From positions 14,542,912 to 14,606,911 of the forward strand of contig NC_092675.1 in assembly GCF_964355755.1 (NCBI RefSeq): a stretch of DNA of 64,000 nt. The letters are read 5' to 3'. This document shows positions 5,618 to 46,850 of this stretch, in pieces (the first letter of the stretch is position 1; each line of letters opens with the position of its first letter). Source of the DNA: Antedon mediterranea (lineage: Eukaryota; Animalia; Echinodermata). Under the pieces are notes generated by a model, which saw only the letters and a list, made by a program, of their open reading frames with translations, searched no databases and was not told where the DNA came from. The position numbers were made by a program, and so were the translations under genes.

Positions 5618-5647
5618 CAATAATGAAAAAGTAAAAACAACACTTAC

Positions 5648-6022
5648 TTCTCTTCGCCTACGTTTTTGAAAGGCGCCTCTACTACGACTAGCAGCTGGGC
5701 CTGGGATCTTCTCGGTGGCGGTGCTTTCTGAAGGCAATGTAACCTTCGAAGGTATTGCCCCGTCTTTCAATTTCAAATTTACTTTTTCTTTGAATCCCAT
5801 TTCACGAAGATTAGGTGGGTATTTCGCAAAGTCTTCTTCCAAGAAGTGCTCCGAACATATCGTTGCGAATTTGCTAGGCTGGAAATGTTTTCGTCTGACG
5901 GCGTGGATCCATGCCTTTCTCAGACCCGAAGACTTTGGGAAGGAAAAAAATCCTATATTCCGGTCGCGATTTTATCCTCCACTTGTTGTATTGGTACAAT
6001 TAAATGCTGCACAATACGGCAT
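5648..6022 (-). pseudogene. THAP-domain first exon of the Kolobok transposase
   Basis: MPYCAAFNCTN...FFSFPK...RKAWIHAVRR...ICSEHF...LKDGAIPS is a C2CH THAP motif; one in-frame TAA; GT donor at 5647. Confidence 0.85.
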
Positions 6023-7900: not shown

Positions 7901-8132
7901 AATCTGTGATAAAAGAGGTACATCTACACTAGATTGGTAGGTCTACTTTGGTACGAATTTGGGCCAGCCGGTCGCGATTTTTTTTTTCGTACATAAGTTG
8001 GGGACCCCATCATGAAACGTCACAAAATAAACATGAATAATTCATCAGTTAAATTTTCTTGTTCCGTGTGCACCCAAGCGTATAGCAACAAGAAGTGATT
8101 ACACAAGTGCGGTACGATTCTAGGCCTATCTC

Positions 8133-8765
8133 TACGGGGCGCCGTATGGGACATTGCTAATTTTGTCGAAATATTACAATTTTGTCTACACATAATTAAT
8201 TTTGTCAATACAAAATTTATTTTGTCAACACAAAATTAATTTTGTCAATACAAAATTAATTTTGTATTGACAAAATTCATTTTGTATTGACAAAATTTAT
8301 TCTGTGTGGACAAAATTCATTTTGTCTCGACAAAATTAATTCTGTGTAAACAAAATTCATTCTGTGTAGACAAAATTAATTCTGTGTTGACAAAATTAAT
8401 TCTGTGTAGACAAAATTCATTCTGTAACGACAAAATTCATTTTGTGGCGACAAAATTCATTCTGTAACGACAAAATTAATTTTGTATAGACAAAATTAAT
8501 TCTGTGTGGACAAAATTAATTCTGTGTAGACAAAATTCATTCTGTGTGGACAGAATTCATTTTGTGGCGACAAAATGTATTCTGTGTAGACAAAATTTAT
8601 TCTGTGTAGACAAAATTCATTCTGTGTAGACAAAATTCATTCTGTGTAGACAAAATTAATTTTGTGGCAACAAAATTCATTTTGTCGCGACAAAATAAAT
8701 TTTGTTAGCCGAGCCTACTCAAGCGTGGGACAAAACGTTTTAACATTTAAATTAGAAGGCGGGGT
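8133..8765 (+). repeat. Left TIR with an array of ~20-bp units (gacaaaattaattctgtgta-type)
   Basis: Reverse complement of ~27930-28581, including the unique inner segment gccgagcctactcaagcgtgggacaaaacgtttt...aaattagaaggcgg. Confidence 0.9.
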
Positions 8766-10520
8766 TGTTATTGGAAACTTGAAGATTGACAGTTATAGGC
8801 CTACGATCAAACAGCGCGCGAATATCATTTTACGACCTCCTCTACACCGGTGCCAACAAATTGTTAATAGGTAAGCAATTTAAATTAATTTATCCACCGT
8901 GAGTAAAAGCAAACTAATTAAGCAACAGTCTAATATGGAACTTGAATACTTTTGCGTCGAGTATAAGTACAGTTTATACTGACGTATAACAGTTGTATAC
9001 TTAAAATTAATTCCGATTCAGCAAAACGGAACACGTAGCCCTATATATGCCTACCAATTTTGGTAATAAATATTAAAGATGGTTGAAGATTTATATCGAT
9101 ACCGATAATATTGATTAAGAAAATGACAACACTATTTACGATAACATCTGATAAGTTGAGTAGTAATGAAATGATTTTAGTTAATACATTTATTTTAATA
9201 TAATAGTTAGTATAGGCCTATTTATTCTTATGAGAATGCGTCGTCTATATAGGCCTACCAAGTTTATTTGATAGGAATACTAAATTGCTAATAGGTCTAA
9301 TTCAAGGGAACAAAACTATGATATATCTCTTAAGACATATATTAATTGTCTCTAATTGGAATAATAGCGATATCTTTATTGAAAAGATATCTTGGTTAAA
9401 AATAGGGATATATCTATTGGAACCTAAGATCTATAGGCCTATTGTAAACTAATTACATCTATTAAAAACTAAGATATTTTAGTTGCCTAAATAAATGATT
9501 TGATACGCCATAGATTATGATATTGCAAATTGTCGTTAAAGAGTTAAATTTAATTTCAAATTTACGTTTAACTATAATTTTACTCTCGGTTGCATATTAT
9601 TACATATTTACACCCTCGAAAGATATAATTCAACTTTGACCGAATAGTTATATGGATGTTCACACAACTGACATATGGCGCCTCTCAAGTATCCATTCCC
9701 ATGGCAGTGTATATAACCCCTCCACCTTCTCCATCGTAAAATAAGTAGAAATGACAGTTTTTTCAACAACAGCGATCAAAGATAATTAATCACCTTAAAG
9801 GACCAGTTGCCTGGCTTACCACCCAACCATATTCTTTTTGTATATACCATATTACTTATACATCATTATTTTGGTGCAGTCTTTAATCCATTATTGTGAA
9901 ACCTACTTTCCTTCACATATCTGAATGAACTATATTCCTTCCATCAAAATGTTGTTACTGTATAAATAATTTAGACTGCACGTACCTACTTATACATTGT
10001 GACATGACACTACACTATGAATAGATTGTTGCATTTTTGGGGATGAGACAATTATTCTATAACCTAATAAATTCATGATATGTCATTTATTCCCTGTCTA
10101 TTTTATAAATTATTCGTTATATGTTGTTTTACTTGTGTTTATACTGTTTTAAAAGTGTGATAGTTGACAAAATTATTAACAGTTATTGTACAGATGACAT
10201 TCGTATTGAAAAAAAAAGTTTATCTAGCATCTAGGCATGTATATCGTCAGGGAAAATTTTCATTTAAAAATTTTGTTTAGCAATATTGCTAATCAAACTT
10301 ATTTTTAAGTCGAGAAACATAGTTTTGTATTGTATTTTTTGCTACACAATTTTCAAAATGAGTAGCAATAAGGTTGTTTTGTATAGCTTTTTGCTACGCT
10401 ACACTGGCGAAAATGTTCCCTGTATCGTACTGTACAAAGTTTCTAAAAGCAAAACATTTATTTTTATTTCAAGACAGAAATTTAATACTATAGGTTGTAT
10501 GATACTACAGTATTACAACA

Positions 10521-13500
10521 ATGGAAGACTCAGATGACACAATTCAGATTTCTTCAAAGGTAAAGGCATAGACAAAAACCTGCATGACAGGCTCGCATTC
10601 ATTTTTTTCCATTCCCAGTGTATTTGTTATTTTGAAAGAAGTACCTTTGTAAATTGAGTAACGATTTAAAGATGTATTTCAAAATAAATAAGATTATCAT
10701 TAGTTATCATGGATCTTTAAAATAAAAATACAAGAGAAATTGTACTGTATTCATATTTACACTCAATTTACAATTTATCAGCTTTTTAAGGAATTGCTTG
10801 AAAAGTGTTTCCAGCAGATTCCCACCCAGCCAGTGTCAGCGTCAATGCCTTTGCCAAGCAGACAGCAGACTCTCACCCAGCAGACGTCGCCATCGTCCAG
10901 GCCTTTGCCAAGCAGGCAGCAGGTTCCCATCCAGCAGACGTCAGCGTCCAGGCCTTTGCCGAGCACTGCAGCTGCTGGGTCCTCGACATCATTACAATCT
11001 TCAACATCAACGTTCGTTCCGAGAAGATTAAGGAGGCCCGCATCTTCTTTATCACGGCTTCCATCGCTGATGGAGAATAAAAATGATGAGGAAGACGACT
11101 CTGGAAATGACTTTTTACCATCGCGTCCCGGGAGTTGTAGGCAATTTGTAAGTTTTAAAAATAGTTCATAAAATCAAATTTTTCTTCATTTAATTGTTTA
11201 CCGATTTACAAACATACGCTCCACTTTCCCCATGAAACATTATTTGGAATAAAAAAGTCATTGTTGCTGTACTTATTTCTACTGTGGGCATTCCTTCTCA
11301 GCCCGGTGAAGGTTTTGTCAGCCCGGTAAAATCCGTCCCCCGCCCCGCGCCTCGCTACTGAAATCTACAGTAAGTTATTTGTTTATCCCGCTCCCACTTT
11401 TAACACAAAATGTATCTATATTTTCGTATAGCCTCCTCTTCGATTTGGATCATCCCGAAAAAGGGCACATACAGTGAAAAATGAAAGCAAAAAAAAAAAG
11501 AAGGTTTCAAAGGTTATAACTAAAGAAATAGTAATGCTACCAATGGATTCGCAAAAAGACCACAATGGAGACTACGAAGTTCCCAAACCAGAAAGAAGGT
11601 GTGATTTGATCCACCGTAAATTGGTAGCGAAAATTGCGCTCCGTCGGTCAGACTCTGCTGATGAAGTTAGGGAGCAAATGGAGTCGATATTTGGAAGTAT
11701 GGCATACACATTTCTGCAGGTAATGATAACACAAAAAAAACACAAAAAAGAAAAAAACAACAAAAAAACATGTAGGCCTATAACAAGTTACGGTACTTTC
11801 ATAATAACAATTGTGTTACAATGCGTTATATTTTGTGTTATTTTTTTAAGATACTACCTGGTAACAAAAAACTGTCAAAACCTCTATTTTCGAAAAATTG
11901 CCAGTTAAACGGCGAGACCGTTCTGTCTCTTTCACCACAAGGCAGGATCTATTCTCTGGCACTAGAAGAGGTAAGTTTCCTAATATTACTTAAACATGCG
12001 GAACGATTCAAATTAAATGAGAGGGTTTGATAGTGTTTAACAACCTCGTGGACTTACAAAATTAAATAAAAATTAAAAAAACATATTCAAATTGTAATTA
12101 CAGTACGCTTTACGTACTCGGTATAGCATTACTATTTTCTAAACAGATATACTCTGAAAAATATATAGTTGTTTATTATGTATTATGATTCTATAATTAA
12201 ACTATATTTCAGACTACAAATACTAACAAAGAAGTGTACATAACCGATGACGAACCACTAGAACCAGACAGGCTTACTGACCAACCATTGGCGTCTTCGC
12301 CTCTTGCTTCGCCATCTTCAGTTACGTTTCTGGTACGATTTTAAAGTTTACAACTGAATGTAATGTGTATTATTGTGTAGATGACTTCTAGAATAATACT
12401 GATAAGAATATAACATCATAATACAACTATTAATTCATACATTTTGAATTCATTATCTTTTATAAATTTTAGGAATCTATCAGTGAACCACCAGAACCAA
12501 GGTCACCACCACCAATAGTAAGTTCCTCTTTGTTGCGATTTTAAAGTTTACAACTGAATGTAATGTGTATTATTGTGTAGATGACTTCTAGAATAATACT
12601 GATAAGAATATAACATCATAATACAACTATTAATTCATACATTTTGAATTCATTATCTTTTATAAATTTTAGGAATCTATCAGTGAACCACCAGAACCAA
12701 GGTCACCACCACCAATAGTAAGTTCCTCTTTGTTGCGACTTTGTGTTAGAATAAATCTTTAGCCAAGTTGATTTATATTTCTATCTGAGTTATTCTGAGT
12801 TGTTTTCAATACATAAACTTCTTTTAAAGCACTTTTGCCTTTTTATGTTTTGATTTTCAAATTGTTCGATATGTTTTAATACTCTATATATAGTCAAGCT
12901 GATAAATTAGACATTGTACAACAGACTTACTAAATTTGTTTTTTATATTTCACTCGTTTTTTTAGACTTTAAGATTTTCTTAAAATGGTTTTATTACCGA
13001 GCATATGTAATTCTTATTTTTCCTTACTCTCTTATATTGATAATTTCTTTAATAGTTTAATTTTGTTTAAATCCAAATTAAGAAATATTTGTAGTTGGTT
13101 TAAGGTGCTTTGTTTTGTTGATGTTCCAGTTGACTCGTATTACTATGTATTTCGTTCTGTGAGTGACAGAATTAAAAAACGATAAAAGCTATTCATTTAG
13201 GCCTATTATCATTCCAGGAGAATGTTGAACTATCTTCGGAGCCAAGGTCACCATCTCCACCACCACCAGAACTGTCGTTTTATGTAGGTTGGGCTTATTC
13301 GACTATAAGTGATATTACTAGAGCATTATACCAATTACATTGCTAGAGTGCTTTGCTGTGTAACCAATCGATTTATATACCAGTTAATTTTTTAAATGTA
13401 CAATAAAGTTATGAAGTAATCAGTGTAGATAGTGATTATGAAAGTATAATAAAGTACAGTTTAGTATAAGGTTGGGGTAATTAATTGATCACATAGGCCT

Positions 13501-16500
13501 TATTATTAAAACATTTTACCGATTAATAACACTATATCATTTTTAAAACTATTTTAGAAAGTTTTGACAGAATATTGAATTAAAAATATACCATTACTAA
13601 ATTCCTGTTAAAGGAGACAGTTTTACGTAATAACACGTTTCTTCCTTACATCATTATTTTGTTCCTCCATGCTTACACAACGTTTTGTCATTATAGGGAA
13701 CAGAACCTTGTTCGAATTGTTGTACGACATATACAGATGAATTTGGAAACTGTCTACGTTGCAGTCAAAATGACGAATTTGCAAAATGTGCCATGGAAAA
13801 TAAGTTTAAGACTGCCTATGTTAATGCCCAGGTTAGGCGTAGATTTAACTTCTTTATATCAACTAATACGGCGTATTTAATAAAACTCAAAGTGTAACAA
13901 TAAACAATAATTGTGATTCAGTAGCATTGCATCGTAGCTTTAAACGATTTAAATAAAACCTAATAACCATCAAATTTATTAATATATTTAATTTAGTCTT
14001 GTATGTAGCAGTACTTACATTAATGCACTATTTTCCATCGCGCACGGTCTTTCAGTTCTTTTTGGTTGTTCTAACACATAAGAAAGCCAAACCCTATCTG
14101 ATATTATAATATTTTACTTTCTAACAACGGCAGAAAGAAAGAGACGATTCAATCATGAAACTGCAAGCGGAAGAAGAATCCACGAGACTGGAAGAAAGAG
14201 AATCAAGACGGAGAGAGGCCCGTCTTGCAGTCATGACAGATGAGTGTGGGAAGAATATAAAATTCAGATTTAAAAATGCACAGGCAACGCACACGTTTCC
14301 AGAAAATGCATTATACAAGGTAAAACAAAACGATAAAGTAAAACAGCCAGAAAAATTAGCAGAGCTTTCGGGCAATACTAGCCCTTCATCAGTGAGAGAC
14401 TATGATATATATGTATATATAAAAGCCGAGGTCAATACTTTATAAATTCCGTTGCAGGACTTATTCAATTACATAATGGCGCAGCCAGCATCTACAGAGT
14501 TATTCTCTGTTAGTGGACACAACTTTTTTACATCAAATAGGACTGACGTGTGTCTAGAAACACCACTTCCTTTATCGGTATTTGGGACAATTCTAAATGT
14601 GCAATGGCTTGGAGATAGGAACGACGACTCTGAAGGCCTGACCACGTAAGAAATACATTGACTCTTGTTAAAAATTGTAAATATAGAAACAGTTCACAAA
14701 ATGTTCATGTAAAACACGGCAATTCGTTTTTCGAGATAGAAAATAAAGCATACCACTAGCAAGCTAAGTAAAAAAAAAATCACTAAATTTTAAATCGTTT
14801 TCAGATATATGCAAAAGTGTGACAAACCTTATCAACATTTTTTAAAAGAAGATATGGACACATCAACTGAAAATTTCGCAGATATAGACATGTGAGTTTT
14901 TTTTATTAATGATGTACAGGCATAGATAAACACTAAACCGTCCTGAAATATGGAAAATTAGCAATAAAAAAAAACAGAATTGTACCTGAAACCTTTTGCA
15001 GTATTACTGTTATACATTAGTGTGATAATAAACTGCCAGATAATAAACACAATAAAAATAAACAAATGATACAATTTTAAATGAAAACCTAACACTATCT
15101 TTTTTTGTCATAGTGATACAAGAGATCGCCTGAGAGAGCTTTTAAAAGAACTGAAAACGAAGGCTCAGAAAGGTTATTCAAAACAACCAAATTTTGTGAT
15201 GTGCCGACGCCTTTTTGTAGTCGAAGATATTATGAGTCACTTCCAATTCCATTTACAAATTGATCCTAGTGGTAAATGGCTAGAACAGCCTTACAGAGTG
15301 AAATTTATTGGTGAGTTACAACACATTTTATGTGTGTTACACTTTCATCGACTTAAAAAAAATTGTGTGGTTGGCAAGTCGTTATTTGTATGCTTTTTTG
15401 ATTTGTTAAACTTATATACTGTACACAACTACTAATATTTAATTACATTTTAAACATTTGTTTTTCGTTGTTAAGCATGACCAGTGCATATATTTATTTT
15501 TATAAATCATATACTGTATCTTTTATTTTTTAGGCGAATCTGGAATTGATCTTACTGGTCTCGGAAGGGAGATGGCCACATTATTTTTAAATGGCCTTAC
15601 CAAATCCCACTACCTAAATTGCTCGACTCTACGAAAAAGCCAAGACATAATTGAAAAGAGGGGGTACATGGTGCTTGGCAATGTGATTGCAAACATTGCA
15701 ATTAACCATGGAATTTGCCCCGGGATCTTTGGTAAGCCAGTAGTAGCCCATCTCCTAGGTCTTCAATACCGATCTACCGACCCAAATGATGTACCGTGTA
15801 TGGAGTCGAGACAGCATCTGATTAAGGTACTGTAACTTATGGTGTGAACCAACATCTTATGTAAACATGGGCCCAAAAACAATCATTAAAATGTAATGTC
15901 GAACGTAATATGCAGATCTAAAACTGTGCATATGTTTCTTTCAAGCAGCTGTGAGTGCATTATAATCACAATTTTAAAATACTGCCTTCTATCAATAAGC
16001 TTGATAATTATTGTTTACATACATCAATTTCCAAATTCGGATGTTTATTAATCTTTTATCACGCTCTTAGATGTGTGCATCTAACACGGAGGATGAGTTT
16101 ATGCAACTGTCCAACAGTCTACCACTGGATGACTGGGGCATATGCACAAGTAAAAGAAGTGTCTGTATTGAGGACTTTCCAACTATCTTGCGACAATCTG
16201 TCGAGCAACTCGCTGTCTTAAATGTTCACACTGAACTAAGACAATTTGCAGAAGGTACAGTAATTTCTAATTAGTTCCATATTTTATTTATCAAATACTG
16301 TAAGCTCTATACTGTCACTGCGAGCTATATATAAATTGTTTCTTTTAAAATATTATTTTGTTTGTTAAATTGTTTTCACACACATAGGTAGAATTTTGTT
16401 TAACCTTGTATCTTCTTTGACATTAGCCACTAATACCCAAAACAATATTTTTCAGGTTTAAATGCATTTGGGCTATTAGACCATTTAATAAAGGATAAAC

Positions 16501-17295
16501 AGGTCGGTAGAGCATTTTTCAGCCGCCCACATGCATTGGACTCCGAGTGGTTTCTAGATGAAAACAATGTAGCATTTGAATACTCGGAAAATGGCAGTAA
16601 CCAACGAACGGAGGAGGAACAGGCACACATGGCATTTGTGCATCTGACTAAAAGTTTAGAACGTATGTAGGCCTAAATTATTAATGCAGTTTACAAAGCT
16701 TTGCTTTTCCAGTGCTGTTACTATTCAATGAATGGGGAATTATCGTCTTAGAAGGCTACTGTTGGTTAGTGACGATTGTTTGGGGAGGACGTAGGAATTT
16801 ATAGTAGGGGGATCAACAAAGACGTATTTAACATTAAGGTTTTGTACTTGATATACATTTTAAATATAACTTCCTGCATCAGATCCTCCCCACTCATAGA
16901 ATTCTTGATTGTCATGCCAAGTGTTAAATTAATGCAATGGCAGACCTACCCAGTAAGTAGGAAGTATGACATGTATCATGTAAGTTTGCTCTTATATTTT
17001 AAATGGAATGGTTAAGAAACGTGACGAGGGAAAAATAGACCTAAAAGACCTTCTACAGTTCTGGGTTGCGGTTGATGCCATCCCCCCTCAAGGACTGGGA
17101 ATGGTTTTAAAGGTCTGTTTTGTAGACGGCGTGCTACCCTCTTCCAACACATGTGCAGGGCTACTTCGTATTCCAAGACGAAGCAAAGTTGGGGAGTTGG
17201 AAGAAGCATTTAGAGAAGCTGTGATATGCAGTCCGTGCTTTGACGATGACGAAGTCGAGCCGGAAAATGACTTGTCAGCTGTCGGTCCACTTTAA
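10521..17295 (+). CDS. Multi-exon HECT-domain E3 ubiquitin ligase-like protein (~940 aa). Exons 10521-10559, 10782-11147, 11432-11719, 11851-11970, 12213-12332, 12473-12517, 12673-12717, 13218-13283, 13697-13831, 14134-14319, 14458-14645, 14805-14891, 15114-15310, 15534-15826, 16071-16254, 16456-16662, last exon ~17020/17040-17295
   Basis: Manual splicing gives GT-AG introns with consistent phase and no stops through 16 exons. HECT motifs: YRVKFIGESGIDLTGLGREM, QFAEGLNAFGLL, LLQFWVAVDAIPPQG and LPSSNTCAGLLRIP (catalytic Cys). The acceptor of the last exon is unresolved. Confidence 0.85.
12336..12738 (+). repeat. Apparently exact 200-bp tandem duplication containing a 45-nt exon
   Basis: 12336-12535 is repeated at 12536-12735; each copy holds ag|ESISEPPEPRSPPPI|gtaagt. 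Confidence 0.9.
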
Positions 17296-17633
17296 TTTTT
17301 TCTCTTAGTAAAACGAGTCTTCTGTTACACATACCGTATTAAAAAAGAGGATATGAAAGGGTTCCAAATTTACGTAGTACATACTGTTAAATATTCCTGA
17401 CTGAAATATTAAATTTCGTAGATGACGATAAAGCATAGTAAACAGCCCTAAGAAATGAAAAAAAAACCCGCTGGTGACGTCACTAGCGGAAACTTTTGTA
17501 CAGGGAACATAGGAATTTTTTGGTTAATCGTCCACTACGCCAAAACTATTTCGATATAAACTTATCCGCTTGGCAGTTTTATTCTTAAATGAATTATACA
17601 TCATAATTCGTTGAATTGAATTTCCTACCACTT

Positions 17634-17752
17634 TGTTTAGTCGCGTGGACGCGACTCTATAGTTCACTATGTCGGTCGGTCGGTCTGTCTGTCTGTCGGT
17701 CCGGTATCACTATGCATTTTAGCAGGCGACTTATGGCTGTTTGCCTTGTTTT
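17634..17752 (+). mobile_element. Short DINE-1/HINE-like repeat copy
   Basis: tttagtcgcgtggacgcgactctatagttcactatgtcggtcggtc...gcgacttatggctgtttgccttgttt; same family as 180-6615 and 59405-60165. Confidence 0.7.
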
Positions 17753-19938
17753 TTTATTGATTTAAAATAGATATACATTTAAGACGAGGATGAGACTAGT
17801 ATTCATATTGATGTTGTTGGTTTGGATATTCATAGCTAGGTGGAGGTAGTAAAGTAGTACTACTATGTAAATATTATTATGATGAATGATTGAAATATAC
17901 TGTGTCACACATTTTCGTCGTCGCATGTTGTGTGACACACAATGTCAAACACGATTCAATACGGCTGCCGTGGATATTACCGCGGGTATTTCAAATACAG
18001 TAACTGAGCGATCGGACGTACGTGTGTTTAGAACGTTCTTAAAAACCAATATGGCGTGCAAGTTGGTCGGCCATTTTTCGAAGATTTTTATTAAAAACTT
18101 TATTTATTTAAAGCTAATTTTTGTTGTGTTGCTTATTTACATTAGAAAGATTCATAATCAATTATTTATTCAATTTTTCAAAACCCTTTCATATCCTCTT
18201 TAACACTCAGTTCTACCAACTGTTCTTAATTTTATATGTACTAGCAGTTACCTGTGCTCCGCATGGTCTTTTCATTTCTATTTTCAATGGTTGCTATTTG
18301 ATTACACTAATCCGTATTTTTGTGGGAGCTGTGTGATTAATTATGTTCAGGAATTGTGACATGCAATTGCAATTTTTCTAAACGATAAAAACAAAATGTG
18401 TACATCAGAGGGAATGTTTCTAGATGCAAAACTGCCACCTAAATCATGCAAACGACCTCTTATTGGTCACACATTGTTTTCGTGTTTAACAAAATTTAAA
18501 ATTACTTGGATTTCGTTTCCTTTTTTTGTGTATGTTGTTGATTTTCCCAATTTATACATTTGTTTTAATGCTTTTGATATTTGCATTTTTCTAATTGGAC
18601 TCGTAATGTGTGCCTATGTATACCAATACCTAAATGTAGTTGCAATTACCAGACATTTCAGTTTGTAAGGAGTATATGCTGTACTATACTCTTATTTGTA
18701 TAACTATTGCAACTTTAACGTACTGATTTTGTTAAACTATATATATATTTTTTTCAACAAATTAACGTTTATTTCTTTTAAAATAACAATACAAAACTAG
18801 AATTTAATTCGTCACTTTGACAAATTATAGGTGATCATTTTTATAATTTTAATGACATTTAATTTTTAAAACGATGCACGTACGTTAAAATACGATCGTA
18901 AAATGTTGACGTAAGCCATCCTATGACCCGATTATGTATACTCTTACAGTTCTGAGTTGTGCCTATTATTGTATGTATGATTAGATAATGTAGCCTATAC
19001 AGTATACACTGTATATCTATATACAGTGTAGGATAGGTGAAATTAGGGGACCCACATTATGTTCTAATTTTTTTGGTATGATGACGTTATCAAAATAAAC
19101 TTGGACGTGACAAATTCTGAAGATTATGAATTGAGCAAAACGTTATAAGATTTAGAACAAAATTCAAATTACTGTTATTTTTTGCCTGGTTTTATATGAT
19201 AAATAAAAAAAATTACCAATACAACCTAATGACGTGTTTGAAACAATTAATTAGTAGTTGTGCTTTTTCACTAAATCTCTTTTACTTGATATACCCACAT
19301 TGGCAATTTTGATTTTGATAACTTTTCTAGTAAATTTAATTATTTTAAAACCGGTCTCTTTTTCAACAATAACTTGTACACAACAACTGCGGTATACAAA
19401 GACTGGTTTTCCAGTATTCATTACTTTAAAGCTATAAGCTACAAGCTACAGGCATTAATTTAAGATATCTTCATTTTAAACTCAAAATATTATTGTAATT
19501 TCAATTGTAACTCGCGACAAAATGGTTTGTTAACTGTTATTATAATGGAGGCGGGGCGTCTGAAATCATTTAGTTGTCATTGGCTATAGTTGTACTGTAG
19601 CAAGCGCCTTGACTGAAGAGTCGAAACCACAGCATACAGGAAGATTAAATATACTAAAAAGAGTGAGGAAATATTTCTTTAGAATAAGACAAACGGTAAG
19701 CTTTTTAAAATTTCTATAAATTTACAACCTGTTCGTTCTTAGGACTACGAACGTTAACAATATAATATATAACAATATATATATATTAACATATATTAAC
19801 AGTATAGGCCTATATATAATATTACCGCAGGCCTACATGTTCTTTAAAATTGAATTGTCTAAAAATAAATGCTCGATGTAGGCCCAATTTTAGATTGTTT
19901 AACCATCTCTAAAATTATTAATACGGTTTAATTTAGAT

Positions 19939-21198
19939 ATGGATCCGCCCGACATTAACGCCTTGCATGGTTTACTAGATGAAAACATTCCGATAACAAG
20001 AATCGCTGGAATACACAAGGTATGTATAAAATGAACGCTAAAAAAGAAAGAACACTTGCATTTGAAAAGCACTAATAAATCATAAACACTAAAAATGGTA
20101 TAGGCCTAAAGTACAATATATATATATTATGTTTCTTTTTCTGTTTAGGTGTGCAGAAAGACAATTTATAGGTGGTTGTTAAAATACGGTCTTAATTACG
20201 AGAGGTTTACAAATATATCTGATGATGAACTTGCCAACATCATTCGACATATAAAGAAGACACACCCGAACGATGGGGAAGTACTAATGGATGGCCATTT
20301 AAAAGCTAGAATTCCCCCAATTAAGATACGAAGACAAAGACTGAGAGCGGCAATACGTTTGGTTGACCCAGAGGGAGTTAAAAGGAGAAAAAGTGTTGCC
20401 ATCAGACGTCGGCAGTACTCCGTGCCTTGTCCACATTATATGTGGCATGTTGATGGAAACCATAAGCTGATAAAATACAAAATGGTCATACACGGAGGAA
20501 TAGATGGTTTTACAAGACTTGTTGTATTCATGAACATATCACCTAATAACCGAGCAACGACAGTCGAAGCCGGGTTTTTACAGGCAACTAACGAATTTGG
20601 TTGGCCCATTCGAGTACGCACTGACAAAGGCGGAGAAAACGCAATTGTATGGGACCATATGGTGTCTAAGAGAGGTGAATCTTCTGCTTTGCTTGGGAGT
20701 TCAGTCCACAACCAACCAATTGAACAGTTATGGGGGATTATAAATGACAGAGGTACTTCCCAATTCAAAGTATTGTTTAGAGACATGGAAGTTAATGGGG
20801 AGTTGGATGTTGAAAATGAAACGGACATTCTTTGTTTACACTGGGTTTTTTTACCATTAATACAAAACACATTAACTGAACTAGCGAAGTCATTAAATAA
20901 AAGAAAATTGTCAACTGAAAAACAGCGCACGCCTTTTCAGCTGGAGGCTGAATATATTCATCTGAAAAACCAATATGAGGTAAATCCAATTGCAACACAT
21001 GGTGGTGTGGACTTTCCGTACTTGGACCCAACATCACTAGAGAGGCCACTCCAGCAGGTAACGTGTGAGCAGTTTGAAGCTTTACCTGAAGAGGTCCTAG
21101 ACAACTTGCGTAATCTTGGAGAAGCCCAGACCCTCAGTCAAGGCAGAGCCATGTACAAGGGTGCTGTTCGAGTGGTCTCGAATTACATGCTTTCATAA
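19939..21198 (+). CDS. DDE transposase (integrase-core, IS3/IS481-related, IS3EU type), 2 coding exons 19939-20019 and 20149-21198, 376 aa
   Basis: The HTH IAGIHK|VCRKTIYRWL is rebuilt across a phase-0 GT-AG intron; catalytic motifs WHVDGNHKL, HGGIDGFTR, RVRTDKGGEN, GSSVHNQPIEQLW; no stops; lies inside the TIR/TSD-bounded element. Confidence 0.9.
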
Positions 21199-23124
21199 CT
21201 GCAAGATACACGCCAAATCGAGTATCCATGACGATTGCTTTCAATTTATAGACCTAACTTTGATAGCCCCTTGTTATTACTTGCAAGTATACCTGCCCAA
21301 GGACGGGTTTCAAATGTTATTTAAAACATTCCCAGTACAATTCTGATCACTTTGATACCGATCATTACCCACATAACTTTAGTATCTCCGTAATACTCAC
21401 CCACCCCTACACTTCCTAACACCAGGGAGTTGTAATTACAACTCCCTGCACTCGGGTGACTTTTTGAAGTACAGTATATTGTTTAAAACCTTCCCAGGGT
21501 TAGGTTTGTTGATACGTATTACACGTGCACCATTTGTGTGGACGCGTGTATTAGCATTATTTTGTAAAACCCAGCAAACGCAAACTTACTAATTCTGTCT
21601 CGATTTATTTACGTGGTCTGTATTAAATTTAAAATATGTTTTGTTACAAATATGTAAATTTTGTATCTGTATATGTTTATATGATTCTATATTTAAATTA
21701 ACTGTTTTTAGTTTTTCTATCTAGTTAGGTTTTATATTTACTTTTGTTTTTAGTCGCGTGAAAGCGATTCTATAATTCACTATGTCGGTCGGTCTGTCGG
21801 TCGGTCCGGTATCACTTTGCGTTTTATCGCGTTTTCTGTACTCTTTGAACTGCACGCGACTCATTACGCGGACCAGGCTACTTTAGCGTTACGTTTGGCA
21901 TCCACTGAATCAGTGGATGACCTATCCCCTCAACATGTCAATTGTGGTATAAGTTGACAGGAATAATACTCTGTGGTGTAATAAAAATGCCAGCGTGTTT
22001 ATTTAAGACTGCAAGTGTTAAGAATAACTTGCTGTCCATTTTCAACTTCCTCTTACCAATGACCAATAGCAAACAGGCACTGCTTGTCAATCAGGTCCTC
22101 ACTGACTGGGTATTAACCAATCAATTTACTATTAGATAGGTCACTGATTTTATACAATAGTTTGCGGGAAATTTTATTTCTGACCTTATACAGGAATAAA
22201 TACTTTAGTGGTTGTTTATAATCTAATCTAAATATTTCTCAATGCTGCTTTATGCAAAGCAAAGGAATTTAACTAGAACTACAGACACATTAAATAAATA
22301 CTTTTAAACATGAACAATAGTTTTGCTAGGGAATTGGGATGGCCGTGTGATATTCAATTTATTAAATTTAATGGGAAAGTACAGTATATATCTTTCACAA
22401 AATGACTTAAAATATCTTCGTATGTCATCAGGCAGCGTTTTAAAGGCCATGGAAGCCCTTTGGTCGATTTTGGGAACAAAATGGATTGATAGGCAATCAT
22501 GAGTACTTCCGAACAGTGCTATAAATGTATCACGAAAGCATATTAGTGTTTCATGTTTTATTCACCTGTTGTTGGGTGGTGGACATCTTGTAGACAATAT
22601 GTACAGCAGCAACAAACATACATAATGGATACAAATGAACACAATTTAAATTTGATAACTCTACGCGATTTTATACGAGATAAATGCGTAGACTCGGTCA
22701 TCAATGACCGTCTACTTGATAATATAAACGACGAGCCCGTGGTTGAAATTACCTGGAAGAAAATGTACAACAGAACTATTAGAAAGAATTAATCGCAAAA
22801 GGGTTAGGCCCGGTAAGCCAGATATACCATGGAGTTCAAATATCCCCCGCCATTCCTCTTGATGGATTGAGGCGGCAGGCCTCAAAGCGATTTTAAAATT
22901 GAATGGAAGCGCATCGAAAATCAATAAAAGATCTTTCTCGGAAGATTCATTGTGGAGGAAAATCTGACTTGCATGGTAGGTAGAAATCAACAGTGCCAAT
23001 AAAAATAAAATAATTAACAAATTCTTATCAGATAGATCTACGTAAATGTGTGAAGTAGGACTAAAGAGGTCTTATTTACAGTATATCAGTAGGCCTAATA
23101 TATATTCGTATAAAATATCCTAAT

Positions 23125-23615
23125 TTCCACAACTCAGGATTATGTCCATAATGATATCAATAGTAAGATTCTGTTATAGGCCTATGCGTAATTTTTTTTT
23201 ATTAAGCCACTAATTTTTCATTATCATACATTAAATTCAATTATACCATGATACATAATTCAGTGATTATTTTACAGTTATTTTCTCATTTTCCCAATTG
23301 TCTTTTCTCTTACAGGTAATAACGTGGTACGTGCTTCATGATTGATGGTAAAATTAATTTATACCTGTAACAATAGAGTATGGCAAGGCATTTCGGACCG
23401 GATGGAGTACTCCTTTAAAGTTGTCATCGGAGGAAAAGATTAGGTGGAAGAAATGCTTTCCATGGACTGCACCAGAAGTAATTTCTGGTGTCGAAGCACC
23501 ATCAGAGCACAGCGATATTTACGCGTTTGGATACATGTGCAGCCGCATATTTACCAAAACGAACAACATAAGAATTCGGGAAACTGCATGCGGCGGCCGT
23601 CACCTGCAGAGCTAG
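23125..23615 (+). pseudogene. Decayed protein kinase (catalytic loop to subdomain IX)
   Basis: FHNSG..VHNDI | intron | GNNV...IEYGKA...FPWTAPEVISGVEAPSEHSDIYAFG; frameshifts and stops are present. Confidence 0.7.
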
Positions 23616-24019
23616 CTTGGCCACCACCTTTTATGTAATAACGTTAGATCATGAATAATTAAAAGTCATACGTTTTTCAGAATAGATTTTTAAAAAAGGG
23701 GAGCAATAAATTGTAGCTTTGTTTTCTTTTATTTATTATTAGTTTATGTATACATATTTTTTTATTTTTCGTATTCGTATTTAATGTTATATTTCGGGGT
23801 GGGTAAAACTTACTGACTGGCTTATTATGACTCTCTCCCCACATGATTACTTCATTGCATTTATTATCCTGTATGTATGTTATTATATTGTGGAAATAAA
23901 ATAAAATAAATAAAATAAAATTGAAATTGAAATTATATTTATTTGCAATTATCACATATTTTGTTCTATTTTACATTGTATAAAATTGTTATAAAACGAT
24001 GACAACATACAATGACAGG

Positions 24020-25800
24020 AAAAACAGTAGCAGGATACAAAAACAGTTTCTGGGTACAAAACATTTGTAAAAAAAAATTGTTTTGTACAAAAACATTGAC
24101 TGGGTACAAAAACGGTGGTAGGGTATAAAAACAGTGGCAGGGTACAAAAACAGTGGCAGAGTACACAAACAGTGACAGGGTACAAACACGGTGGCAGGGT
24201 ACAAAGTCGATGGCAGCTGGGTAAAAAATCAGTAGCAGGGTACAAAAACAGTAGCAGGGTACAAAAACAGTGGCAGGGTACAAAAACGGTGACAGGGTAC
24301 AAAATAGATGGCAGCTGGGTACAAAAACAGTAGAAGGGTACAAAAACAGTGGCAGGGTACAAAAACGATGGCAGGGTACAAAAACGATGGCAGATGGGTA
24401 CAAAAACAGTGGCAGGGTACAAAAACGGTGGCAGGGTACAAAAACGGTGGCAGGGTACAAAAACGATGGCAGATGGGTACAAAATCAGTGGCAGGGTACA
24501 AAAATAGTGGCAGGGTACAAAAACGGTGGCAGGGTACAAAAACAATGGCAGTTGGGTACAAAAAAATGAGCAGGGCACAAAAACAGTGGAGGGTACAAAA
24601 ACGGTGGCAGGGTACAAAAACGATAGCAGCTGGGTACAAAAACAGTGGCAGGATACAAAAACAGTGGCAGGGTACAAAAACAGTGGCAGGATACAAAAAC
24701 GGTGGCAGGGTACAAAAACGATGACAGCTGGGTACAAAAACGGTGGCAGGGTACAAAAACGGTGGCAGGGTACAAAAACGGTAGCAGGGTGGTACAAAAA
24801 CAGTGTCACTGATTTTATACAATAGTTCGCGGGAAATCTGATTGCTGACCTTATACAGGAATAAATACTTAGTGGTTGTGATATTCCATTTATTAAATTT
24901 AATGGGAAAGTATATCTTTCACAAAATGATGTATGTATGTCAGGCAGTGTTTTAAAGGCTGGAAGCCCCTGGTGGAAGGGTACAAAAACGATGGCAGCTG
25001 GGTACAAAAACAGTGGCAGGGTACAAAAACGGTGGCAGGGTATATACAAAAACGATGGCAGGGTACAAAAACGATGGCAGTTGGGTACAAAAACAGTCGC
25101 AGGGTACATAAACAGTGGCAAGGTACACAACCAGTGGCAGGGTACAAAAACGGTGGTAGGGTACAAAAACAGTGGCAGGGTACAAAAACGGTGGCAGGGT
25201 ACAAAATCGATGGCAGCTGGGTACAAAAACAGTTGCAGGGTACAAAAACAGAGACAGGGTATGACAAGCAGTGGTCTAGGGTACAAAAACTTTTGTTGTA
25301 TACAAAGTGTCTGGGAAAAAAGACGATGACAGCTAGTGGTACAAAAACGGTGGCAGGGAAACAAAAACGGTGGCAGAGTACAAAAACGGTTGCAGGCTAT
25401 AAAAACAGTCGCAGGGTACAAAACAGTGGCAGGGTACAAAAATGGTGGCAGGGTATAAAAACAGTGGCAGGGTATAAAAACAGTGGCAGTGTACAAAAAC
25501 AGTGGCAGGGTACAAACACGATGGCAGCTGGGTACAAAAACTGGGGCATGGTACAAAAACAGTAGCAGGGTACAAAAATGGTGGCAGGGTACAAGAACAG
25601 TGGCAGGGAACAAAACAGTGTCAGGTACAAAAACAGAGACGGTACGACCAAGCAGTGGTCTAGGATACAAAAACTTGTGTTGTATCCAAAGTTTCTGGGA
25701 AAAAAAGAAGATTGCAGGGATACAAAAACGGTGGCAGGGATACAAAACAGTGGCAGAGTACACAAAATTGTGTTGTACTAAAACAGTGGCAGGGTAAAAA
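24020..25800. repeat. Minisatellite, ~19-23-bp unit gggtacaaaaac(a/g)gtggca
   Basis: Visible directly; interrupted at ~24805-24970 by a copy of 22140-22460. Confidence 0.95.
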
Positions 25801-27929
25801 ACATACACACTTATTTGTAGCATTTTACAAAAAAAGTATCGGTCCGGAGTATTCATCAACAGAGCTAAACAAATGAAGGAAAGGGTCAGAACATGTGACT
25901 CTGGCAGATAACAGATAACATTACTTTTCAAGAGTAATAAGAAAAAAGGAATTAACATATTACAGTATATTCAATTTGTTAACCTAAATATATCTTTCAT
26001 TTTTAATTTAAGATAATTATTTACATGATGATAACACTTTTTAATGTGTATTAATTTAAATTGGTTATTTAAATTAATAACATATTCATTCATATTCATA
26101 ATTGTCAATCATTTTTTTCCATTAAAACTTAAAAATTGGCTATTTGTAGTTTATTGTATTAATCTTTATGGTTTATTTTACATCATTTATATCTCAATGT
26201 ATATTGCATTATTGTTATTATCTTTGATTAAATATTAATATTATGTACTGTAGTACGTCCTATACACATTTTTAAAAATGCTCAACAAAGTCTCAAACCA
26301 CATAAAATCTAAAAGTTGAAACTGAATATTTAATGGCCCTTGAGAATTCTAGGTAGCCTGCGAAAAGGTCATCAAGGCCAAATTTAAGAGGATGACTCAA
26401 GCTCTTCCATGCGAATCATCTCAGGTTAGACCAACCTCCAGCAGTGGGCAGGACTTGTAGTTAGAACTTGTGTCTCAAATGACACTCCAGGGCAATAAAA
26501 TCACAATAACTTACAAAGCACTGACAGTAATTGCTTGTCAAAACCAAATTGCCTAACCGTAACGCTAACGTAGCCTGGTCCGCGTAATGTTACAGTGGCT
26601 GTTGGCCTTGTTTGCTAAATGCTTTTGAAAGAAAAATGGTAAAGCACTTTCTTTACCTCGACTCACGAATCAAATGATTTAAATTGAAAACAGAGTCCGA
26701 TGCTGTTGTTTGAATATAATAATGTTAAAAATGCTAGATATAAATGTTATGTTTCTATGCTTATTTTACAACTTCATGGTTGATTTTATTTATTATACAT
26801 TGCTAATTGCAAATAATTGTTTATAGGTTTACATTGTTCGTTGTACTTTTGATGTACGTATTCAGTCTTTGTTGGCTGGCTTGATAAGATTGATGTTAAA
26901 TAAAAATGCATTTTCCACTAATAAAATATGGAGTTGTATCGAGAGAGTATCGTAATTTCGGGCAGAATGGTTTTCGGTCTGGAAAGGTCATTATTACACT
27001 GTCTGGGGTGTTGATATTTATACATCGAATGTTTTATGGGCAATCAGTCCTGAACCTAGCCAACGTAGGCTACCTGGCCTACTTACTACTGTAGGTTAGA
27101 GGTTATTAGGTTTCGCAGGGTGGATGACTGTTATAATAAAACTAACGTGAACAATTTTTTGTAGTCAGTTCTTTAAATGTTTTTTTTTCTTCCAATAACG
27201 GACAGCTTTCAGCATCATTATTTCTGCAATGATTATTATTATCTTAAAGATATATTGTCCCCTGAAAAAATGTTTTTTTAAATCTTTTTGTTGAATAGGC
27301 CTATGTTATTTTAATGTCACATAATAGTTATTCACTTTCACAAAAAATTGGGTCTCCAAAAAAAATTATTTACCTGAAAAAAACTGTAATTTAAAGCAAA
27401 AAATGGTCAAATTGTCTGGAAGCCAATGAGTTTTTGGGTAATTTAACTGTTTATTTTGTCTTGAAATAATTTTTTTCCCCGTTCTATTTTCTTATGGAAG
27501 TGAACAACTTCATTAAAACTGCATAATGGCCTATTCTTTATTTTTCATGATTTTGGGAGACAATACATCTTTAATTTTAAAATAAAGTAGATACATTTTA
27601 TAAGATTAATAAATAATATTTTAAACGACAAAATATTAAATAGCCCCATTACTACAATTTTACTTAAGTAATAAGCAGGGCTCTAATGAAAACCATTTTC
27701 CGATTTTTTTAATATAGAATACATTATAATAATAATTATTACTGACGACGTAGATATTAAATTGTCAAAGTATGAATACTGATCATATCTGGTATTTTCA
27801 GGGGTTCCCTGATATTATAAAATAGATTAATATGATAGCAATAGAGACGGAGGCATGCTCAGCCATAATAACTTAACCAATAACAAATGTCAAAGATAGC
27901 TTCACCCTGTCTTGCCCTTTTCACGTTTA

Positions 27930-28581
27930 AACTCCGCCTTCTAATTTAAATATTAAAACGGAGCCTACTCAAGCGTGGGACAAAATGTTTTAAAAAACGT
28001 TTTGTCCCACGCTTGAGTAGGCTCGGCTAACAAAATTTATTTTGTCGCGACAAAATTTATTTTGTCTCGACAAAATGAATTTTGTCTCGACAAAATGAAT
28101 TTTGTCTCGACAAAATGAATTTTGTTGCAACAAAATTCATTTTGTCTACACAGAATGAATTTTGTCTACACAGAATTAATTTTGTCCACACAGAATGAAT
28201 TTTGTCCACACAGAATGAATTTTGTCGTTACAGAATGAATTTTGTCTACACAGAATTAATTTTGTCCACACAGAATTAATTTTGTCTACACAAAATGAAT
28301 TTTGTCGTTACAGAATGAATTTTGTCTACACAGAATTAATTTTGTCAACACAGAATTAATTTTGTCTACACAGAATGAATTTTGTTTACACAGAATTAAT
28401 TTTGTCGAGACAAATGAATTTTGTCCACACAGAATAAATTTTGTCAACAAAAAATGATTTTTGTCAATACAAAATGAATTTTGTGTTGACAAAATGAATT
28501 TTGTATTGACAAAATTAATTATGTGTAGACAAAATTGTAATATTTCGACAAAATTAGCAATGTCACAAACGGCGCCCCGTA
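27930..28581 (-). repeat. Right TIR of the 20.4-kb element
   Basis: 20-bp array ttttgtctacacagaatgaa in reverse orientation, plus the terminal ACGGCGCCCCGTA. Confidence 0.9.
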
Positions 28582-29374
28582 TATCTCCGCTGATTTCATA
28601 ATAGAATAGCGGAGTTTTGTGTGGATTGTCGAAATAATCAGCCTTTAGTTTATGGTGTTTTTAATATAGTTTATTACTAAAGAATTACGTGTTAAAATTA
28701 TAGTTTCTATTGATACTATTAGGCCTAATTACTAGTCTCTAAACCCCTGTATATTCTAGTAGTAGTAGCTGTGTGGGTGTGTGTGACTTGTGTCTTTGGG
28801 CTATGTCCAATTACTACTTATAGTCAATGGGATTTAGGCTTTTAACTCACACAAATTGCAAGAAAAGGTTTTTTGATGAAAAGTGTTCTTTAGACCCTAC
28901 TGAACACATTTATCAACGTTAGGACATTTTTCGACAACAGGAAGTAGCCTAATTTGCATAATTAAAGATGGCCGCCATTTTTAATAACGTACTCTGTATC
29001 TTGGAAACCGCTAGTCACAGATACTTAATTATGGTGTCAAAATCGTTAGAATATATGTTTTTATATTCACTTTAATGAAAAAGTTTGTCCAAAAATGAAT
29101 GGAAGTGCTATTTCTAACATTATTGACCTTTGACCTTGATTTATCATATCTCAGCAACCACTAATCGGAGATATACAAATTAGGGCTTAAATTTAAAAAT
29201 TGTTCAGAAACTACACATTTATATCTAGTCTAATGGCATGTTTTTGCAAAAAATGGCGGATTCTAACATTATTGACCTTTGACCTTGATTTATCATATCT
29301 TAGCAACCACTAATCTGAGAGACACACAATATGGCTCAAACTGTTAAAAAACTACATATTTATATTTAGTCTAA

Positions 29375-29880
29375 TGACGATTGGTGTGTACTGCATGACA
29401 ATTGGTGTGTACTGCATGACCATTGGTGTGTACTGCATGACTATTGGTGTGTACTGCATGACCATTGGTGTGTACTGCATGACCATTGGTGTGTACTGCA
29501 TGACGATTGGTGTGTACTGCATGACCATTGTGAACTGAAGGCAGAGGAGGCGTTCCATAGTGTACTGCATGACGATTGGTGTGTACTGCATGACGATTGG
29601 TGTGTACTGCATGGTAAATGTGAACGACGATTGGTGTGTACTGCATGACAATTGGTGTGTACTGCATGACCATTGGTGTGTACTGCATGACGATTGGTGT
29701 GTACTGCATGACGATTGGTGTGTACTGCATGACGATTGGTGTGTACTGCATGATGTTTGGTATGTACTGCATGACGATTGGTGTGTACTGCATGACGATT
29801 GGTGTGTACTGCATGACCATTGGTGTGTACTGCATGACGATTGGTGTGTACTGCATGAAGATTGGTGTGTACTGCATGAT
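29375..29880. repeat. 21-bp minisatellite attggtgtgtactgcatgacg
   Basis: Visible directly, ~20 units. Confidence 0.95.
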
Positions 29881-29954
29881 AAATGTGAACTGAAGGCAGA
29901 GGAGGCGTTCCATAATAGCCAGGATCGGTATATGAGTTTGTTTGCCAGGCTGGA

Positions 29955-30875
29955 GCGGGCCGCGATTTTTTTTTTCGTACATAAGTTGGGGACCCCTCAT
30001 GAAACGTCACAAAATAAACATGAATAATTCATCAGTTAAATTATCTTGTTCCGTGTGCACCCAAGCGTATAGCAACAAGAAGTGATTACACAACTGCGAT
30101 ACGATTATTTCTACAGTAGGCCTAGGATTCTAAGTCAATTCACGTGATTGCCTTCGCGCACTCTTCTTCACACACATACCACTATGCAAAATGTATCGAG
30201 TCGAGGCTAATCCGACAGCTAGGCAAGACATTACACTAAGTAGTAATTCATTGGACATAGCCCAAATAAACCTTAGACCCACAAGAATAAAGAATGTGTA
30301 TGATTTGTATACTTACTTTTTTTTAATTCTGCTATTTTATTATCAAACAATATGCATGTACTCAAAGGAACTTTAAAAATGCGCGTATATTTATATGAAC
30401 ACATGAGATGGGAAGATTAGACCCACGAGAATAAAAAATGTATTTTTGTGTAAGTTTATTGTTTAATTTTGCTGACTTATTACTCGGATTGTGTCATACC
30501 AACACACACACGTCACACATACCCACACAGCTACTACTAGAATAGACATGGGTTTAGAGACAAATAATTAGGCCTAATAGTATTAATAGAAACTATAATT
30601 TTAACACGTAATTCTTTAGTAATACATTATATTAAAAACACCATAAACTAAAGGCTGATTATTTCGACAATCCACACAAAACGCAGCTATTCTTCTATGA
30701 AATCGCACGCCGCAACAACAGCGGAGTCTGAGATAGGCCTAGAATCGTACCGCAATACGCTTGGGTGCACACGGAACAGGAAAATTTAACTGATGAATTA
30801 TTCATGTTTATTTTGTGACGTTTCATGAGGTGGTCCCCAACTTATGTACGAAAAAAAAATCGCGGGCGGGCGAGC
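29955..30875. repeat. Two oppositely oriented copies of the dispersed repeat that hosts the 20.4-kb element
   Basis: cgcgatttttttttcgtacataagttggggacc... at ~29960 (+), ~30865 (-) and ~7973 (+). Confidence 0.75.
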
Positions 30876-46225: not shown

Positions 46226-46850
46226 CTACAAAAATGAAAAAATAAATAAATTAAAATTACCTCTTATTGTAAAGTTTATTACATGCAAATAAAAAAACTA
46301 CTTGTAATTGTATACACTAGATGGTACGCTCGCTTGCTCACATACCATCTAGGTCGTTCCCACAGATGGTTCTCGAATACACTTTAAGTTCAGCGTAAAA
46401 AAATGTTTTTTTGTGTACGTACCGCAGGACTATAGGTCTAATACATTGTCGTTTACAGAAACGAATAAATAGACACAATGATTTATGTAGTCAACTAAAA
46501 TTAGCACCCTGGGAATTACAGAAACTTGTCACAAAATGAGTACAGATTTTTTATTTGGATTCATTTAAAGAAACCCAATTTGTGTTTTTTATATAACATT
46601 AGGGTTGAGGGATGGTGAGGAGGATGGGTACAAATTTTTAAATACAGTATATTCTTTATCCACTCATGTTTTTTAGGCCTATAAATAATATACCACTAAA
46701 TACAGTAAAACATTGTCATAGTCGATGAAATAGTAAAATACAAATAAACGACACACCACTACAACGTTTATATTTGTTGTAATTATTAATTAATACAAAC
46801 AATGAGAAGCAACTGTCAGTAATAAAGTTTATTTGTATATTATTATGTGC

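Follow-up and report, generated by a model that had tools for sequence, protein, structure and literature searches.

An IS3EU-type transposon of the echinoderm Antedon mediterranea with its own HECT ubiquitin ligase gene, a pairing that recurs in related elements

IS3EU transposons are defined by TA..TA ends and a 6-bp target site duplication (TSD) (Kojima and Bao 2023, PMC10045372). The described features of IS3EU and GingerRoot elements, namely the termini, the 6-bp TSD, terminal inverted repeats (TIRs) and a DDE transposase lacking an HHCC zinc finger (PMC10045372; Cerbin et al. 2019, PMC6839031), are shared by the 20.4-kb element described here, which lies in a 64,000-nucleotide stretch of the Antedon mediterranea genome (NC_092675.1, positions 14,542,912 to 14,606,911; hereafter the window). 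In contrast to those elements as described, the window element adds a full HECT ubiquitin ligase gene. Its TIRs consist of about 630 bp of a 20-bp array, compared with the 100–150 bp reported for GingerRoot, and its length (about 15.3 kb without nested repeats) compares with a reported GingerRoot range of 3.9–12.9 kb. A second protein has been ascribed to IS3EU (PMC10853768, figure legend), whose structure and function have been called largely unexplored (PMC11934779, available text). Rust-fungus IS3EU elements have TAYGG..CCRTA ends, a 6-bp TSD and enzyme genes beside the transposase, as in the window, but according to the available text this cargo consists of TET/JBP DNA dioxygenase and alpha-kinase genes, with no HECT gene, whereas the cargo here is a ubiquitin ligase (Kojima 2025, PMC12730594). 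An initial annotation of the window had called IS3EU a two-gene superfamily; the rust-fungus cargo makes this description too tidy. The words ‘HECT’ and ‘ubiquitin’ are absent from the main text of PMC10045372, and the available text of PMC6839031 reports captured fragments without using the word ‘ligase’. Our literature search, with Repbase, Dfam and subscription papers outside its range, returned no report of an IS3EU–HECT pairing. The transposase–HECT pairing is robust and apparently unpublished.

On the ligase side, divergent G2E3-like HECT proteins have been classed as host genes, with transposons unmentioned in the text available (PMC3673628, PMC2837046). The window ligase has in common with G2E3 and the ‘GL-Metazoa’ class IV HECTs (Grau-Bove et al. 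2013, PMC3673628) a highly divergent HECT domain. However, G2E3 is described as carrying three RING/PHD-like fingers at its N-terminus, together with a HECT domain that does not function, whereas the window ligase has no such fingers and keeps its cysteine. The GL families are treated as host genes in PMC3673628 (‘transpos’ occurs 0 times in the available text), whereas the window ligase lies inside a transposon.

The block carrying this gene is almost certainly a complete IS3EU/GingerRoot-type element (coordinates of all features are given in Table 1). Its termini read TACGG...CCGTA, agreeing with the TAYGG..CCRTA pattern of IS3EU/GingerRoot, and the right end is the reverse complement of the left end TACGGGGCGCC. 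Across the whole window, the terminal 12-mer has exact matches only at the two element ends; when up to two mismatches are allowed there are three matches, the third overlapping the left end, and 0 of 100 shuffled sequences reach three. The chance of a 6-base TSD match at both fixed points is 3e-4. Of the 105 outermost bases of the TIR arms, 102 agree, and the alignment of the arms has 551 identical columns among 594 (92.8%), with inverted similarity spanning 630 bp on the left and 648 bp on the right, where the arm contains an extra palindromic piece. Most of each arm is the 20-bp array (26.4 copies on the left and 25.4 on the right), which likely provides candidate binding sites for the transposase. 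Thus, the TAC...GTA ends, TIRs of about 630 bp and perfect 6-bp TSD proposed in the initial annotation are all present. The element was inserted inside a repeat, and a paralogue of this repeat, which had been taken for an empty site, joins both flanks without the element. About 20 other bases directly follow TATCTC in this paralogue; differing at the site itself, it supports insertion but is only approximately an empty site. Similarly, the idea that the 20.4-kb block was inserted as one unit stands for the complete TIR- and TSD-bounded element, but not for about 5.2 kb of nested repeats, which leave a core of about 15.3 kb.

The transposase is intact and encoded on the same strand as the HECT gene, as originally described. 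Its catalytic triad (D-x56-D-x32-E) is preserved, and D102, D159 and E192 (exon-2 frame numbering) fall in conserved columns of the transposase alignment. By eye, the core matches the NHKL subgroup of the IS3EU cores from Repbase that the PMC10045372 supplement prints; this subgroup contains IS3EU-1_CVi, -1_SK, -3_CGi, -3_DR, -4_DR and -6_CGi, as well as AD_GR-001. A Pfam scan of the window frames found no integrase zinc-finger (HHCC) family. The termini, the 6-bp TSD, the TIRs and the IS3/IS481-like DDE core motifs without HHCC all place the element in IS3EU. The NQPIEQLW motif of the transposase was considered as a possible defect and rejected, because the near relatives P0001–P0004 share it. 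The nearest named transposase is from Mytilus edulis (61%). Its cluster (P0002) includes near-identical copies on several Mytilus chromosomes, which suggests a young Mytilus family. Together with the spliceosomal introns and the neighbouring endonuclease/reverse transcriptase, GIY-YIG and THAP frames, the Mytilus match points to animal DNA. No relatives were found in viral contigs.

The ligase gene was modelled from splice signals, and its 17 predicted exons join into a single open frame with GT at 16 of 16 donors and AG at 15 of 16 acceptors. The remaining acceptor, that of exon 17, reads AA in the window, but base 17002 is G in four of four public read sets carrying three organism labels. 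This G gives an AG exactly where the model needs an acceptor, which argues that the gene model is right and that the AA stems either from a private mutation or from faulty assembly. HECT E3 ligases have a HECT domain of about 350 residues at the C-terminus. The Pfam HECT family matches exon 17 over its cut-off (E 1.1e-6) and exon 14 at E 0.05, residues 624–926 align with six Pfam-positive HECT proteins (E 5e-10 to 4e-7), and a profile of the ligase matches solved HECT domains. The gene of about 17 exons on the transposase strand that had been noted at first is therefore confirmed as a 949-residue HECT frame. Cys903 aligns with the TC of its relatives and of UBE3C, and is the predicted catalytic cysteine, which is kept. 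One alignment of seven proteins (A2) misplaced exons 13–15. A search with exon 17 found close relatives among 0 of 259 candidates, and a search with exon 14 gave two weak matches, one of them spurious.

Upstream of the HECT domain, the domain encoded by exons 3–4 recurs in the ligase-side frames of 10 related loci. A homologue from one of these loci (L028) was modelled with a predicted local distance difference test score of 80.5, and its best matches in two fold searches are beta-grasp domains (best Foldseek E 0.03). In the VIA search it scores Z 6.2 against the TBK1 ubiquitin-like domain, with a root-mean-square deviation of 2.4 over 76 residues. The ubiquitin-like domain that this model predicts for the ligases in question is new. 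The KKKKK run preceding it is a possible nuclear signal. In Atlas searches, exon 3 matched unnamed cnidarian and chordate clusters at 0.92–0.93, and exon 10 matched only unrelated coiled coils at 0.76. Pfam scans of the exon frames, taken singly with short low-complexity exons left out, revealed no PHD or RING families, and the 949-residue model holds just one four-cysteine motif. P0076, a relative of the window ligase, bears the NCBI name ‘G2 M phase-specific E3 ubiquitin-ligase-like’, which is the kind of G2E3-like annotation that had been predicted for such ligases. The structural model of P0076 is confident in the HECT domain only.

The pairing is found in many related loci. Metagenome contigs were fetched around 79 transposases (from the best 80 of 534 confirmed stretches), and a HECT profile seeded with the window HECT domain was iterated on these same 79 loci. 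The iterated profile detected HECT-like frames beside the transposase in 37 of the 79 loci and had 0 matches in a reversed-sequence control; the Pfam HECT cut-off was passed in 19 of the 37 (39 open reading frames scanned). Upstream matches in L049, L076 and L048 were made by the profile only, and Pfam did not confirm them. HECT frames are present in 23 of the 33 loci with at least 2 kb of downstream sequence (10 by Pfam) and, counted per transposase family, in 27 of 56 (15 by Pfam). Among 19 held-out loci outside the profile training, six contain a HECT frame (6 of the 11 long ones), four of which Pfam confirms. Conversely, in five bins chosen for holding transposases, nine of 15 Pfam HECT matches lie within 10 kb of an rva_4 match and five within 1 kb. 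For the ten matches on four contigs of known length, seven lie within 10 kb against 2.8 expected (P 0.002, within-contig shuffle), and the same shuffle gives P 0.007 at 1 kb.

A screen for TSD-bounded elements covered 28 loci of at least 5 kb. One 10-kb family is represented twice, by L059 and L061, whose TSDs are ATTGAA and CGCGGA. Among the held-out loci, L083 is a complete 7.3-kb element with the TSD CTACAC. Both genes are inside each of these three elements. L051 contains both genes between 340-bp TIRs at a contig edge, and all four elements have TAT...ATA ends. L063 is a deleted element that kept the ligase tail. Dispersed copies with different TSDs exist in three related families (L059/L061, L046/L060 and L026/L028/L039). 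Since the pair recurs in related loci, it is not a one-off capture, and the presence of HECT genes inside TIR- or TSD-bounded relatives supports the initial description of the ligase as a dedicated accessory gene. The ligase is downstream of and convergent with the transposase in 33 of the 37 loci. In the L026/L028/L039 family, one end of which reads TATGGGGCGCC like that of the window element, the ligase is upstream on the opposite strand. The same-strand upstream layout of the window was found in no other intact locus (P0001–P0004 come without context); this placement, which is not convergent, is new.

The 19 held-out loci (L080–L098) are located in GTDB bacterial or archaeal bins, several of them sponge symbionts, and hold IS3EU transposases and HECT genes. 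Probably, contigs of the hosts, up to 2.5 Mb long, were wrongly assigned to the bins of species representatives. In view of their fragmented frames and TA microsatellites, we used them as animal DNA and not as bacterial insertion sequences. In L033, a frame with RING and B-box domains (TRIM-like; 14974–15966) lies 4 kb downstream of an IS3EU transposase without a HECT neighbour, and is either another kind of E3 partner or a host gene that lies there by chance.

The initial annotation had proposed a comparison of the transposase and HECT phylogenies and a calculation of dN/dS (the ratio of non-synonymous to synonymous substitution rates) among copies. In a comparison of 20 families, the distances between transposases are correlated with those between their ligases (Spearman 0.38, Mantel P 2e-4); several clades agree, whereas one pair is plainly discordant. 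The catalytic cysteine is kept in 19 of the 20 ligase families. Non-synonymous differences (pN) are below synonymous ones (pS) in seven of nine ligase pairs (one near-identical pair tends the opposite way and one is identical), and dN/dS is 0.07–0.29 in four unsaturated pairs. As judged from these substitutions, the element-borne ligase is under purifying selection. A quick transposase tree was built from collection sequences only, with 49 rows, one per chosen family and near-copies left out. The window transposase belongs to a clade of 17 rows with a support of 99, eight of which have a convergent ligase, and the ligase occurs on both sides of the tree. Very probably, this transposon lineage has long had the ligase as a partner. 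That the gene is kept under purifying selection between TIRs in lineages far apart suggests that it helps the element. Fragments of captured genes are frequent in GingerRoot elements (22 of 77; PMC6839031, available text) and many of our related loci have no HECT gene, as would be expected if a HECT gene had been captured once and rode along without aiding transposition. However, those captured fragments are partial and 79–98% identical to host genes (PMC6839031, available text), whereas here the protein, including its cysteine, is conserved while synonymous sites are saturated. The fixed convergent layout and the occurrence of the ligase on both sides of the tree also argue against a passive passenger, a reading that we consider largely refuted already and very improbable.

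Read sets labelled with three organisms (A, B and C) are near-identical to the window sequence, introns included, in a comparison that covers 15520–17350, where read depth does not equal copy number. This pattern fits either a low-copy family or one inherited locus. In the latter case, the insertion might be old and fixed, with a HECT gene that now serves the host, or a host gene might simply lie between the TIRs. The ageing of the window copy, with TIRs that have drifted to about 93% identity and nested repeats that have gathered, is compatible with such a history, and the exon variants listed (40 of 84 variants) tend towards synonymous changes (6 of 12, where 22% would be expected; P 0.03), although young copies of a selected family would give the same variant pattern. 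On the other hand, the TSD is perfect, the transposase is intact, the insertion lies inside a repeat, and the N-terminal domain of the window ligase is common to other element-borne ligases. Furthermore, exons 14–15 are present in run X5 in another copy as well, which has diverged far more (54 differences in 374 contig bases). We therefore regard domestication as improbable, and recent mobility of the window element as plausible from its sequence. Contigs of run X8, guessed to be RNA, run through the introns without splice joints and thus carry no information on expression.

In phage Mu, ClpX removes the MuA transposase after insertion, and Zisupton/KDZ and other DNA transposons carry ULP1 SUMO-protease cargo. 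The window element resembles these systems in that a transposon makes use of ubiquitin or SUMO, or a remodeller removes transposase. However, the Zisupton/KDZ enzyme is a de-conjugating protease and ClpX is a host unfoldase, whereas the enzyme here is an element-encoded conjugating enzyme in a separate gene. In the mechanism that we propose, the transposase would bind the 20-bp TIR arrays, excise the element and insert it with a 6-bp stagger. The ligase would be expressed and nuclear, and a host E2 would load ubiquitin onto Cys903, while the N-terminal modules (the ubiquitin-like domain, the cysteine motif and a UBX-like segment) would choose the target. This target would be the transposase, above all the stable post-insertion complex, so that p97 and the proteasome, by analogy with ClpX, could strip the tagged complex and the gaps could be repaired; tagging might also cap transposase levels. 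We put the probability that the transposase or its post-insertion complex is the main substrate at roughly 45%. The rough co-descent of ligase and transposase seems to fit an element-encoded substrate better than a host substrate. A complex prediction for the L026 transposase and the L028 ubiquitin-like domain, made without alignments, scored 0.00 twice and gave no answer.

Alternatively, the ligase might degrade a chromatin repressor of the host, a component of the PIWI-interacting RNA pathway or a restriction factor, or might mark chromatin, and thereby let the element escape silencing. The linkage and selection evidence fits this explanation equally. The N-terminal parts differ greatly among ligases and lineages swap ligases, as in host conflict, and the TET/JBP genes of fungal IS3EU elements have been proposed to undo silencing (PMC12730594, available text). 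However, the pair has persisted in hosts that are very distant from each other, and its two trees match roughly, which is easier to explain by an element-encoded target; Pfam scans of the window ligase found no chromatin-reader domain. Counter-silencing seems possible but less likely.

Several observations weigh against the reading of the ligase as a working part of the element that acts on the transposase. A phenylalanine close to the C-terminus is a feature of HECT ligases, and a longer C-terminal tail can impair them; in the window ligase the last conserved phenylalanine is followed by 19 residues, compared with 2–3 in the aligned relatives. The AA acceptor may leave the window copy partly disabled, although splicing could shift to an AG that lies in frame 36 bases downstream, at the cost of 12 residues. 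The beta-grasp Z score of 6.2 is below the tool's mark of 8, and the model comes from a homologue and not from the window ligase. In UBX-domain p97 adaptors, a UBX beta-grasp domain comes after a coiled helix. The UBX-like pattern was recognized by eye in exons 10–11 and in P0076; Pfam gives no match and the P0076 model is unfolded over this stretch, so that neither Pfam nor the fold backs it. Of the 33 loci with 2 kb or more of downstream sequence, ten have no HECT frame, and long loci such as L033, L088, L091 and L095 have none either, which implies that elements may do without the ligase or may often have lost it. The sampled loci represent the NHKL subtype only (65 of 79 NHK, 0 YDK), and other IS3EU elements may do without a ligase. 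Some ligases have changed partner: those at L021:3942–4211 and L066:2525–2752 are 74% identical while their transposases are distant, indicating a likely exchange between element lineages. Finally, co-descent follows from physical linkage alone, to which common host taxa can add.

If the ligase clears transposase, it would be a eukaryotic, element-encoded counterpart of the ClpX remodelling of MuA. The pair offers a two-gene test of whether transposase is removed from DNA or silencing is beaten. A conserved and catalytically intact HECT ligase gives the second-protein partner of IS3EU a name in one large animal branch. Where ‘G2E3-like’ genes have expanded in the genomes of marine animals, the additional genes may be copies of a transposon. 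It is a tentative and rather unlikely generalization that, in one whole IS3EU branch of aquatic animals, a transposase is paired with a modular HECT ligase (ubiquitin-like domain, UBX-like p97 hook and HECT domain) that marks the finished complex for removal. On this view, most of the ‘G2E3-like’ genes present in multiple copies in corals, molluscs, echinoderms and fish, and perhaps the GL-Metazoa family, would be transposon genes. Taken by itself, the window element belongs to a known superfamily and is ordinary within it; the pairing is less novel if Repbase already annotates the ligase.

Table 1. Positions of the IS3EU-type element, its genes, nested repeats and neighbouring features in the window
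Feature	Position	Strand	Remarks
IS3EU-type cut-and-paste transposon	8133–28581		20.4 kb; ends TAC...GTA
Left TSD copy	8127–8132		TATCTC, immediately outside left end
Right TSD copy	28582–28587		TATCTC, immediately outside right end
Left TIR	8133–8762	+	Starts TACGGGGCGCC; 20-bp tandem array 8178–8705
Right TIR	27934–28581	−	20-bp array 28030–28535
HECT E3 ligase gene	10521–17295	+	17 exons, 949 residues; splice-signal model
HECT gene exons 1–6	10521–10559, 10791–11147, 11432–11719, 11851–11970, 12213–12332, 12473–12517	+	
HECT gene exons 7–12	12673–12717, 13218–13283, 13697–13831, 14134–14319, 14458–14645, 14805–14891	+	
HECT gene exons 13–17	15114–15310, 15534–15826, 16071–16254, 16456–16662, 17003–17295	+	
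Exons 3–4 domain	11504–11970	+	Common to ligase genes of other IS3EU elements; preceded by KKKKK run
Tandem duplication, 200 bp	12336–12742	+	99% identical; doubles a 45-nt in-frame exon, giving exons 6 and 7
Exons 9–11	13697–14645	+	Four-cysteine motif, charged helix, UBX-like segment (UBX by eye only)
HECT domain, exons 13–17	15114–17295	+	Catalytic Cys903 (predicted) in SNTC
Exon 17 acceptor	17001–17002	+	AA in window; AG in 4/4 read sets
Short dispersed repeat	17636–17760		Presumably Helentron/HINE-like; inserted between HECT gene and transposase
DDE transposase	19939–21198 (19939–20019, 20149–21198)	+	Two exons, 376 residues; Pfam rva_4 E 7e-57
HINE-like element split by insert	21754–26610		Nested repeat
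4.7-kb insert	21862–26589		40-bp inverted ends (CATTACGCGG...); no clear TSD
Broken protein-kinase gene	22863–23612	+	Stops, frameshifts; PK_Tyr_Ser-Thr E 3.5e-4, below Pfam cut-off
19-bp tandem array	24085–25767		About 78 copies; inside 4.7-kb insert
Paralogue of host repeat that was target	30506–30864	−	Carries both flanks without element
THAP domain frame	5549–5971		
LINE-type endonuclease/reverse transcriptase frame	34667–37798		1044 residues
Penelope-like reverse transcriptase and GIY-YIG pair	46806–48157		

The 4.7-kb insert within the element has an internal partial duplication (22140–22458 with 24805–24968) and contains the remnant of a kinase gene, which the initial annotation had not noted. 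This remnant is of the typical protein kinase type and lies in a nested insert, unlike the alpha-kinase genes reported in the available text on rust-fungus IS3EU elements (PMC12730594). We considered the kinase as IS3EU cargo and disfavoured it: no related locus matches (0), and 0 of 56 flanking open reading frames encode a kinase. By its sequence context, the broken kinase gene is probably not part of the transposon's cargo.

About 800 bp from the element, a 21-bp array at 29374–29914 ends twice in GCGTTCCATA (29559 and 29914). In reverse this is TATGGAACGC, with which the IS3EU families in L059/L061/L063 terminate. We take the array as the likely right-hand terminus of another IS3EU family; no left end of that family was found in the window. 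A 1.4-kb fold-back of a 21-bp array is located at 738–2194 and resembles a miniature inverted-repeat transposable element, with 718-nt arms that are 89% complementary.

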